Virus record (IMG/VR): IMGVR_UViG_2534681649_000009
Length of the DNA stretch: 18,757 nt
Strand: one strand, 5' to 3'
Source of the DNA: a virus
Lineage: Duplodnaviria; Heunggongvirae; Uroviricota; Caudoviricetes
Below are positions 9,001-12,000 of this stretch, in pieces; positions within the stretch are counted from its first letter, which is position 1, and each line of letters starts with the position of its first letter. The position numbers were made by a program.

Positions 9001-12000
9001 CGGGCGGGGCTGTGGCGGATGAGTTCGATAAACCCACCACGGATATCCGTAAGGACAGATGCAGCAAGTGCATGCGCGGGTGTGAACTGCGCAGGAATGT
9101 CGGCAATTTTGGCGGTTTCCTTTCCATTAATAAACTTTCGCAGTAAATCCCGATTTATGACACAGACTGAATCAGCGATTCTGGCGCATGCCCGGCGGTG
9201 TGCGCCTGCGGAGTCGTGCGGCTTCGTGATAAGCACGCCGGAGGGGGAGCGGTATATCCCTTGTGTGAATATTTCTGCAGAGCCGGAGGCGTATTTTCGT
9301 ATCGCACCGGAAGACTGGCTGCGGGCAGAGATGCAGGGGGAGATTGTGGCACTGGTCCACAGTCATCCCGGTGAGCTGCCCTGGCTGAGCGAGGCTGACC
9401 GGCGGCTGCAGATAAAAAGCGCACTGCCCTGGTGGCTGGTCTGCCGGGGGGAAATTCATAAATTCCGCTGTGTGCCACATCTGACAGGACGGCGCTTTGA
9501 GCACGGGGTGACGGACTGTTACACGCTGTTCCGGGATGCATACCATCTGGCGGGAATTGATATGCCGGATTTTCATCGCGAGGATGACTGGTGGCGCAAC
9601 GGCCAGAACCTGTACCTGGACAATATGGCGGTCACCGGCTTTTACCGGGTGCCCCTGTCCTCTGCACCGCCGGGCGATATTCTGCTGTGCTGCTTTGGTG
9701 CTTCGGTACCGAACCATGCCACCATTTACTGCGGCAACGGTGAGCTGCTTCACCATCTGCCTGAACAACTGAGTAAACGGGAGAGGTATTCCGAAAAATG
9801 GCAACGACGAACGCATTCTGTCTGGCGTCACCGCCACTGGCACGCATCTGCCTTCACGGGGATTTGCAACGATTTGGCCGCCGCCTCAGCCTGTATGTGA
9901 ACACGGCAGCGGAAGCCATTCGCGCCCTGTCGATGCAGATGCCGGGCTTTCGCCGTCAGATGAACGAAGGCTGGTACCAGATACGTATTGCCGGTGATGA
10001 CACGGCACCGGAGGCGGTGTATGCCCGTCTTCACGAACAGCTGGGTGAGGGAACGGTCATCCACATTGTGCCGCGACTGGCCGGGGCCGGAAAGGGTGGA
10101 CTGCAGATTGTGTTGGGGGCGGCAGCCATCGTGGGCTCTTTCTTCACTGCCGGGGCATCAATGGCGTTATGGGGTTCAGCCCTGGCAGCCGGTGGTTTTT
10201 CTGCCACCACGATGCTGTTTTCACTTGGAGCCAGCATGATTCTGGGCGGTGTGGCCCAGATGCTGGCCCCGAAGGCAAAAACACCGGATTACCGCGCAAC
10301 GGATAACGGCAGACAGAACACGTACTTTTCCTCGCTGGATAACATGATTGCCCAGGGGAACCCGATGCCGGTGCCTTACGGGGAAATGCTGGTTGGCTCC
10401 CGCCGTATATCCCAGGACATCAGCACCCGTGATGAAGGCGGGGGCGGAAAGGTCGTGGTTATCGGGCGACAGGGATAAAACATAAAAAAATCCCGCAGTG
10501 ATCGCGGAGCTGCGGGGACAGACAAATGAAGATCAATGTGAAGGAGTTGTTTTTGTTACTCGGGCAAAAAAACACTAACGCAGCGAAATTATAAGCGCCA
10601 CAGTCAGTGTGTGAAAATGTGAAGATATTCAGAAATTTTATTCCGTCATGACGCAGGCACCCGGTGAGGTGCCTGTTGTTTTTGTGAGTGAACAATTATC
10701 ACGGTAAGAGGTGATGTAATGGGCAAAGGTGGCGGCAGGGCGCACACACCGCGTGAGGCGAAAGACAATCTCAAATCCACGCAGATGATGAGCGTGATTG
10801 ATGCGATTGGTGAGGGACCGATAGAAGGCCCGGTGAAAGGCCTGCAGAGTATTCTGGTGAACAAAACCCCGCTGACGGACACGGACGGTAATCCCGTGAT
10901 ACACGGTGTGACCGCGGTCTGGCGTGCCGGGGAGCAGGAGCAGACACCACCGGAAAGCTTTGAGTCCTCCGGCTCTGAAACTGTACTGGGTGTCGAAGTG
11001 ACCAGGGCAAAACCGGTAACACGCACCATTACGTCAGCGAACATTGACCGCCTGCGGGTGACCTTCGGGGTGCAGTCACTGGTGGAGACCACGTCAAAGG
11101 GTGACCGTAATCCGTCCTCTGTCCGTCTGCTGATTCAGTTACAGCGTAACGGTAACTGGGTGACAGAAAAGGATGTCACCATTAACGGCAAGACCACCTC
11201 ACAGTTCCTTGCGTCGGTGATTCTGGATAATCTGCCTCCCCGCCCCTTTAACATCCGGATGGTCAGGGAGACGGCGGACAGCACCACGGACCAGCTGCAG
11301 AACAGAACGCTGTGGTCGTCATACACCGAAATCATCGATGTGAAACAGTGCTACCCGAACACGGCCATTGTGGGGATGCAGGTGGATGCGGAGCAGTTTG
11401 GTGGTCAGCAGATGACGGTGAACTACCATATCCGCGGTCGCATCATCCAGGTGCCGTCAAACTATGACCCGGAAAAACGCACGTACAGTGGTATCTGGGA
11501 CGGCAGTCTGAAACCGGCATACAGCAACAACCCGGCCTGGTGCCTGTGGGACATGCTGACTCACCCGCGCTACGGCATGGGAAAATGTCTGGGGGCGGCG
11601 GATGTGGACAAGTGGGCGCTGTATGCCATCGGGCAGTACTGCGACCAGACGGTCCCGGATGGTTTCGGGGGGACCGAGCCGCGGATGACCTTTAATGCGT
11701 ACCTGGCACAACAGCGTAAGGCGTGGGACGTTCTCAGTGATTTCTGCTCTGCGATGCGCTGTATGCCGGTATGGAACGGTCAGACGCTGACGTTCGTTCA
11801 GGACCGCCCGTCGGATGTGGTGTGGCCGTACACCAACAGCGATGTGGTGGTGGATGATAACGGCGTGGGATTCCGCTACAGCTTCAGTGCCCTGAAGGAC
11901 CGGCACACGGCGGTGGAGGTGAATTACACCGACCCGCAGAACGGCTGGCAGACCTCCACGGAACTGGTGGAAGACCCGGAAGCCATACTGCGCTACGGAC

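Follow-up and report, generated by a model that had tools for sequence, protein, structure and literature searches.

The small RNA (sRNA) PasB (E2348CN_0006) of enteropathogenic Escherichia coli (EPEC) O127:H6 E2348/69 was found by Hfq RIL-seq (ligation of interacting RNAs followed by sequencing), confirmed by Northern blotting and shown to be unstable without Hfq and more abundant in the non-activating condition (Pearl Mizrahi et al. 2021, Sci Adv, PMC8550237). It is 83 nt long and is encoded on the minus strand of NC_011601.1 from 1466343 to 1466261 (Table S6, PMC8550237), in prophage PP6 between E2348C_1436 and E2348C_1437; its 5' end at this length was estimated from RNA-seq coverage and the size of the Northern band (PMC8550237). 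According to a recent preprint, PasB is present on 1,107 chromosomes, often as the sole Pas sRNA in the genome (Zhu, Shabalina and Storz 2026, bioRxiv 10.64898/2026.05.13.724894). Other sRNAs encoded by prophages include AgvB and AsxR (51-60 nt), which are located downstream of P_R' / stx and share a 42-nt 3' domain (PMC4104026). Here we analyzed 18,757 nucleotides of DNA from a virus of the Caudoviricetes (IMG/VR record IMGVR_UViG_2534681649_000009; this whole stretch is referred to below as the window) and, within its lambda-like tail gene block, the 240-bp spacer at 10479-10718 that separates the homologues of genes I and J. This spacer very probably harbors pasB, a self-contained, moron-like sRNA gene opposite to the late operon, whose product acts by seed pairing with host and virulence mRNAs. 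The gene itself is not new: others have described it, and its recovery from the window is a rediscovery.

The spacer is 100% identical over 240 bp to positions 1466256-1466495 of the E. coli O127:H6 E2348/69 genome (NC_011601.1), and the same sequence is present, again with 100% identity, in ~20 further complete genomes, with no annotation at this place in any record. Using the offset of 1,455,777 between genome and window, the published 83-nt PasB corresponds to 10566->10484 on the minus strand, and the published Northern probe (AATCCCGCAGTGATCGCGGAGCT) matches the window at 10489-10511. A sequence-only reading of the window, made earlier by a model, had pointed out a minus-oriented hairpin after an A-run; the probe site and the mapped coordinates identify this hairpin as the terminator and U-tail of PasB. 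Besides the identity including the probe site, the locus shares with PasB the position between I and J on the opposite strand and a Rho-independent terminator whose U-tract has the minimum length of 4 required by the PasB discoverers. The PasB transcript, its dependence on Hfq and its chimeras with partner RNAs were demonstrated by others on a sequence identical to ours. Outside the spacer, the window is only ~93% identical to PP6 of E2348/69 and therefore derives from a related prophage in another strain.

The PasB region, taken as the 98-nt form predicted below, was present at >=90% identity in 956 out of 5426 complete E. coli genomes (annotated in 0 of them), in agreement with the 2026 preprint. 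A scan of species-representative genomes gave 5 matches, two of them by chance (Lachnospiraceae) and two as probable E. coli contamination, and tells little about the range beyond E. albertii. No family for the spacer or for PasB was found in Rfam 15 at gathering or permissive thresholds; the best sub-threshold matches (Ref84, Hrs1, Trp_leader) were far below the gathering scores and only echo the terminator. At nt 42 of the 98-nt form, which corresponds to nt 27 of the 83-nt form, a common PasB allele has A where the window and E2348/69 have C; the difference between PasB and PasB-2 reported in the preprint is at position 27 as well (bioRxiv 10.64898/2026.05.13.724894).

The sequence-only reading had described the spacer as holding the minus hairpin, a plus-oriented terminator-like hairpin and a possible 22-codon open reading frame (ORF), and all three are indeed present where it had placed them. 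It had missed a near-consensus promoter on the minus strand (10588..10615; -35 box TTCACA at 10615-10610, 16-bp spacer, -10 box TATAAT at 10593-10588), which matched the sigma-70 consensus at 11 of 12 positions; the scan of 1.6 kb returned 2 sites, with 0.7 expected. This promoter is located ~70 nt upstream of the minus hairpin, so that the two together delimit a complete small transcription unit, which takes up the left two thirds of the spacer and opposes the late operon. The terminator of this unit (10484..10516, minus strand) consists of a 7-bp stem (CCCGCAG at 10492-10498 and CTGCGGG at 10510-10516) closing an 11-nt loop, followed by T7 on the minus strand (U7 in the RNA). It is recovered by the terminator scan, its predicted fold has -12.6 kcal/mol (z = -2.3), and the RIL-seq 3' ends of PasB (1466260/61, corresponding to 10483/84 in the window) coincide with its end. 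If transcription starts ~7 nt after the -10 box, the predicted primary PasB is ~98 nt long (10484..10581, minus strand); the published 5' end at 10566, estimated from coverage, is 15 nt further downstream. The additional segment (minus-strand 10566-10581, GCGUUAGUGUUUUUUU) is conserved across the PasB family and can pair with an A-rich tract at nt 25-36.

Published expression data point to the same unit. In both sheets of Table S2, which compare delta-hfq with wild type, pasB is lowered, with log2 fold changes of -6.8 (activating condition) and -2.4 (non-activating condition), at mean normalized counts (DESeq2 baseMean) of 482 and 1082, respectively (PMC8550237). The baseMean values in the activating-condition sheet were 4.8 for I and 15 for J versus 482 for pasB (Table S2, PMC8550237). 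Counts so far above those of both neighbors imply that PasB is transcribed independently of I and J, from a promoter of its own and while the prophage is repressed. The most conserved block of the spacer (10613..10650) is located just upstream of the -35 box of PasB and is near-invariant in 8 out of 8 PasB-bearing junctions retrieved by BLAST, while the PasB body differs by ~22% among them. A CRP-like sequence within this block, TCTGA-N6-TCACA (10618-10633), matches the CRP core at 9 of 10 positions and is centered at about -44.5 from the predicted transcription start site; the number of such matches is at chance level (1 in the window versus 0.71 expected). Such a site would fit PasB being higher in LB (lysogeny broth) than in DMEM (Dulbecco's modified Eagle medium), and is a lead only.

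PasB belongs to a variable family with a constant 3' end. With the conserved core of the spacer as query, at least 120 loci were detected in IMG/VR, from which 126 homologous copies were extracted; among these, 74 sequences and at least 24 PasB-like RNAs are distinct. The terminator stem is retained in all 24 distinct members, with a compensatory change from G-C to A-U in one of them (L034). A -10 box persists in the variants, reading TATAAT, AATAAT or TATCAT, and GCGTTA(G/A)TGTTTTTTT directly after it is conserved in the 24 distinct variants. Besides this element (GCGTTA(G/A)TG followed by a U-run), all members retain the motif AUCUU, which is invariant and has a pyrimidine-rich CUCCUU-like motif in front of it; the sequence of the flanking body varies. 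In the consensus fold of the 24 members (RNAalifold), the terminator is the only structure and the whole sequence 5' of it is unpaired; the stem between a 5' U-run and an A-run, seen in the single-sequence fold, found no support as a conserved structure in this alignment. The constant terminator presumably represents an Hfq-binding 3' module.

PasB has 37 interaction partners in the RIL-seq data, and in the entries for the non-activating condition it is always RNA2 (the 3' partner) with its 3' end fixed at 1466260/61 (PMC8550237). The most frequent chimeric fragments are those with E2348C_2648 (71), the 5' untranslated region of napF (70), map (67), yhhX (57), the "nlpD IGR" (intergenic region; 56), hflX (55) and fabR (50); partners with fewer chimeras include ygeV, bfpB, raiA, ftsZ, espC, caiF, yibT, tolC, rplX and cesD2 (PMC8550237). 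Note that the segment labeled 'nlpD.E2348C_3010.IGR' (NC_011601.1 3102296-3102585) contains the start of rpoS, which RefSeq lists as a frameshifted pseudogene in E2348/69.

We compared 12 RIL-seq target segments with PasB by strict counts of contiguous Watson-Crick matches, using antisense segments and shuffled PasB as controls; these counts replaced unrestricted RNAduplex predictions, which gave uninformative 60-nt 'duplexes' with huge loops. The sense segments contained 22 matches of 8 nt and the antisense segments 1, all of them inside nt 29-60 of the 98-nt form. For the 66-nt body 5' of the terminator, 21 such matches were counted versus 3.7 +/- 2.5 in 1000 dinucleotide shuffles (maximum 14; 0 of 1000 reached 21). 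The complementarity locates the PasB seed, AAAACAACUCCUUCACAUUGAUCUUCAUUUGU, to 10522..10553 on the minus strand (nt 29-60 and nt 14-45 of the 98-nt and the 83-nt form, respectively). It includes the segments CUCCUUCACAU and AUCUUCAUUU, contains an anti-Shine-Dalgarno-like CUCCUU and two CUUCA motifs, and is unpaired in both the single-sequence and the consensus fold. PasB thereby shows the single-stranded seed and the non-random complementarity to multiple targets of an Hfq-dependent trans-acting sRNA. The C/A allele position (nt 27 of the 83-nt form) is located inside the seed, within the pairings with napF, yijD and caiF, so that the alleles may differ in their targets.

The longest contiguous matches were found for napF (11 nt, or 16 with one G-U) and yijD (11), followed by tolC (10), rpoS (10), caiF (9), ydbJ (9) and yhhX (9), versus <=7 in the antisense controls. 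Relative to the start codons, the sites span -10 to +6 in napF, -17 to -7 in yijD (downstream of fabR), -4 to +7 in tolC, +3 to +12 in caiF, -21 to -13 in ydbJ and -13 to -7 in E2348C_RS14200 (the gene after E2348C_2648); the 10-nt match in rpoS is at +32 to +42. Six of the seven mapped sites are therefore within -21 to +12 of the start codon, and this position suggests occlusion of the ribosome-binding site, with repression as the putative direction of regulation.

These data lead to the following model. In the lysogen, the sigma-70 promoter (10615-10588) would drive the synthesis of an RNA of ~83-98 nt ending at the terminator (10516-10484), which would be stabilized by Hfq. Its single-stranded pyrimidine-rich seed (10553-10522) would then pair with the mRNAs of napF, tolC, caiF, yijD, ydbJ, rpoS, map, bfpB and espC, among others. 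Most sites being located over the Shine-Dalgarno sequence or the start codon, the most likely consequence would be blocked translation initiation, possibly followed by mRNA decay.

Several points weigh against this model. The 12 partners were hand-picked among the abundant ones and padded by 75 nt, and 5 of the 12 have a contiguous match of only 6-8 nt; furthermore, the rpoS site (+32 to +42) is outside the classical initiation window. The motif search of the original authors gave no common motif in PasB targets (PMC8550237), and the function of PasB is 'not elucidated' according to both publications (PMC8550237; bioRxiv 10.64898/2026.05.13.724894). The 15-nt mismatch at the 5' end (10581 versus 10566) points to processing of the RNA or to an error in one of the estimates. 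Finally, expression of PasB in the host of this window is assumed, the prophage being only ~93% identical to PP6 outside the spacer.

The sequence-only reading had proposed that the spacer is a small inserted module or else an attenuator that sets the expression of J apart from that of the upstream tail genes, and had taken I and J to be adjacent in lambda. They are not strictly so: a 60-bp gap separates them, so ~180 bp of the 240-bp spacer are extra. The idea of an inserted module is borne out, as the extra DNA has its own promoter and terminator and a low G+C content (0.42 in the spacer versus 0.55-0.63 in the flanking genes) and is the published pasB. These are the features of a phage moron. 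An alignment of nine I-J junctions confirmed the extra cassette relative to lambda and located it to ~10479-10650, between the I stop codon and the plus hairpin. The plus hairpin lies outside the insert and is general to the junction. The observation of a structured spacer was confirmed, and its interpretation was partly supported.

This plus-strand hairpin (10653..10686, just upstream of the J ribosome-binding site) consists of a stem-loop at 10653-10676 followed by TGTTTTTGTG. It is also recovered by the terminator scan and folds with -19.7 kcal/mol (z = -3.5); 0 out of 200 shuffles fold as well. Across its 13 distinct versions, 98.5% of the cells are paired, compared with 34-49% in slid registers, and one pair changes from C-G to U-A in 5 sequences, with U-G intermediates. 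Comparative data of this kind point to modest but real selection on the structure. With its GC-rich stem, U-rich tract and conserved structure, the hairpin is a predicted intrinsic terminator. In lambda, a plus-strand hairpin with a T-tract (AAACCGCCTGCGGGCGGTTTTGTCATTT) is located in the 60-bp I-J gap, immediately in front of the J ribosome-binding site; a depositor-annotated 'terminator' is present at the corresponding position in phage Ayreon (MF807953), and the hairpin of PPompW-type phages at this place is different again. This variety of hairpins at one spot implies that the plus hairpin is older than the PasB cassette, of which it is no part, and belongs to the I-J junction in general. 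The PPompW-type hairpin looks bidirectional (AAAACCCCGGTATC-TGCT-GATACCGGGGTTTC), with A/T runs on both sides and ~130 bp of extra sequence before J. The right junction half of this type (PPompW_EH2201, positions 430-771) is the commonest in the viral sample (53 of the 126 IMG/VR copies) and differs from that of the window.

Could the spacer serve as a control point in cis of the late operon, with the plus hairpin terminating, attenuating, or processing and stabilizing the late mRNA, so that J is expressed apart from the upstream tail genes? Such a role is compatible with the presence of PasB, and it gains weight from the good match of hairpin and U-tract to an intrinsic terminator, from the z value and the compensatory change, and from the non-homologous hairpins at the same spot in lambda, Ayreon and PPompW, which speak for selection for structure at the I-J boundary. 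Nevertheless, we consider it rather unlikely. In lambda, Q-modified polymerase reads through intrinsic terminators, and late transcription antiterminated in this way would ignore the hairpin; the sodC-bearing junction described below does without it, so that it is dispensable; and I and J are both near-silent in the lysogen. Neither an alternative anti-terminator fold nor a leader peptide is evident, and Rfam gave no leader or riboswitch: the Trp_leader match had 15.5 bits versus a gathering score of 41 and was on the minus strand. Indeed, the fold of 10595-10718 is one dominant hairpin with no competing structure, which is not how an attenuator is built. For the cassette itself attenuation is unlikely, because the minus hairpin ends PasB and not late transcription. 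The plus hairpin may terminate non-antiterminated transcription or stabilize the upstream mRNA; it is an element separate from and older than PasB, through which Q-modified late transcription presumably reads. To our knowledge, no experimental function has been reported for the I-J hairpin here or in lambda-like phages.

The other alternatives concern the RNA itself. PasB is certainly antisense to 10484-10581 of the late transcript and might act mainly in cis, by antisense pairing or by convergent transcription leading to cleavage or interference; conversely, late mRNA might mop up PasB on induction. Convergent sRNA genes do recur in Q-dependent late regions of prophages (Tree et al. 2014, PMC4104026). 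Still, this is improbable as the main role: every RIL-seq partner on record is encoded in trans, and neither E2348C_1436 nor E2348C_1437 is listed in a chimera (a weak test, since these genes are hardly transcribed in the lysogen), while the complementarity of the seed to trans targets is highly non-random, so no role in cis is required to explain its conservation. The free divergence of the PasB body among variants argues in the same direction, though a cis-antisense pair would allow it as well. That PasB could instead titrate GcvB through its CA-rich stretch AACAAAAACAAC, as a sponge of the AgvB/AsxR type, was suggested by the resemblance of this tract to GcvB target sites and by the fact that AgvB-type anti-sRNAs are encoded by prophages (Tree et al. 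2014, PMC4104026). We regard this as very improbable, as the PasB entries read in the RIL-seq table for the non-activating condition include no GcvB-PasB chimera, the Rfam models of AgvB and AsxR (RF02702 / RF02703) gave no match, neither at the gathering threshold nor with E values as high as 10, and the tract is partly sequestered in the 5' stem of the 98-nt fold. Identity with AgvB or AsxR themselves is ruled out by the locus (the moron site at P_R' and not I-J), by length and by Rfam. The same spacer contains, on the plus strand, the 22-codon ORF MKINVKELFLLLGQKNTNAAKL (10526-10594), for which the sequence-only reading had noted an upstream GGGGA. This ORF is indeed present, and 6 nt upstream of its ATG at 10526 there is a purine-rich stretch, but that it encodes a 22-amino-acid protein is hardly credible: the start is ACG in 2 of 8 junction variants (Stx2c_2409 and 1720a-02), frame and peptide are not conserved in Stx-type variants, the length ranges from 16 to 31 codons, and it is antisense to a validated sRNA on a strand essentially untranscribed in the lysogen. 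The partial conservation of its ATGAAG has another cause, namely that it is the complement of CUUCAU in the PasB seed. A small protein gene at 10526 was therefore rejected, start, frame and length varying among homologous loci.

Cargo on the minus strand recurs at the I-J junction, in the form of PasB variants, sodC and insertion sequence (IS) elements. In the Stx2a phage Stx2_EH2201 (LC567829.1, 430-1280; locus L003), an 851-bp I-J spacer carries a minus-strand sodC gene for Cu/Zn superoxide dismutase. In this phage, a PasB-like body with its terminator is located directly downstream of sodC, and the PasB promoter and the plus hairpin are gone, the breakpoint being exactly at the -10 box/transcription start; PasB might here be a 3' read-through product of sodC or a dead remnant. 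In two other loci, an IMG/VR contig (L069, ~527-666) and L024, an IS3-family element (orfA MTKNTRFSPEVRQRAVRMV...) occupies the position of the PasB -10 box and body, and the conserved upstream block and the plus hairpin are retained. L024 (546 bp, labeled Asaia platycodi) is ~86% identical to the I-J-J region of this prophage, and L027 (NZ_JBHTEB010000006.1, 3.4 kb, labeled Streptomyces flavalbus) 95-96%; both almost certainly represent E. coli contamination of the respective assemblies.

One may speculate that the I-J boundary is a dedicated slot for minus-strand cargo expressed in the lysogen and that PasB is one allele of a diversifying sRNA family, in which the terminator, the AUCUU/anti-Shine-Dalgarno core and the upstream block stay constant and the flanks of the seed are swapped, the C/A polymorphism at nt 27 of the 83-nt form included. 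On prophage induction, PasB would be shut off by the late transcript, to which it is perfectly antisense. We put this forward as a doubtful extension. If it holds, different prophages would rewire different host mRNAs, and PasB expression may follow the carbon status through the CRP-like site.

As to the significance of the locus, PasB is among the most highly connected sRNAs of the accessory genome in EPEC (15th by number of interactions), with virulence transcripts (map, bfpB, espC, cesD2) as well as core genes (rpoS, tolC, napF, caiF) among its partners. It is present in roughly one sixth of the complete E. coli genomes, but has neither an annotation in genome records nor an Rfam model. The sRNA being already known, our analysis provides modest added detail: the promoter, a seed supported by targets, sites proximal to ribosome-binding sites, the separation of the cassette from an ancestral hairpin, and the recurrence of minus-strand cargo at the I-J junction. 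Promoter, seed and a short list of targets make PasB function directly testable. Furthermore, the case illustrates that reading hairpins from sequence can recover a real, validated sRNA gene.

The surroundings of the spacer are those of a lambda-like tail region. The I homologue (9798-10478, plus strand) ends at 10478, and its RefSeq homologue is annotated as 'tail assembly protein'; the J ORF (10719-14192, plus strand; RefSeq homologue annotated gpJ) starts with ATG at 10719, preceded by the Shine-Dalgarno sequence AAGAGGTGA at 10706-10714 (together 10706..10721). An ORF of the Ail/Lom family (14260-14859) follows J, as in lambda. Compared with PP6, the window is a mosaic, with identities of 98.5% over 966-2130, 93.4% over 4897-14849 and 86.7% over 14901-15913; the remaining parts, including 1-965, 2131-4896 and 15914-18757, have no match in PP6.

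Among described systems, PasB of E2348/69 is the closest: the whole 240-bp sequence, the strand, the I and J flanks, the terminator and the probe site are the same, and the difference lies in the surrounding prophage, which is a relative of PP6 and not PP6 itself. Unlike in both PasB papers, neither of which derived a seed from targets, the seed was mapped here from the RIL-seq partners. The plus hairpin resembles the I-J hairpins of lambda and Ayreon in its position directly upstream of the J ribosome-binding site, its orientation, and its GC-rich stem with a U-rich tail, whereas its sequence is unrelated to theirs. With AgvB, AsxR and other EcOnc sRNAs of lambdoid prophages in enterohemorrhagic E. 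coli (EHEC), PasB shares binding to Hfq, an own promoter and terminator, a conserved moron position, the orientation often convergent with late transcription, and an action on the host core genome (PMC4104026); however, AgvB and AsxR sponge the host sRNAs GcvB and FnrS, for which there is no evidence in the case of PasB, and their 42-nt 3' domain is absent from it. Finally, the cassette has the properties of the lambdoid morons (such as lom and bor of lambda, or the sodC of Stx and Gifsy-type prophages), i.e., extra DNA with its own promoter and terminator, lower G+C content and expression from the repressed prophage, but instead of a protein gene it carries a non-coding RNA, in antisense orientation to the late operon.

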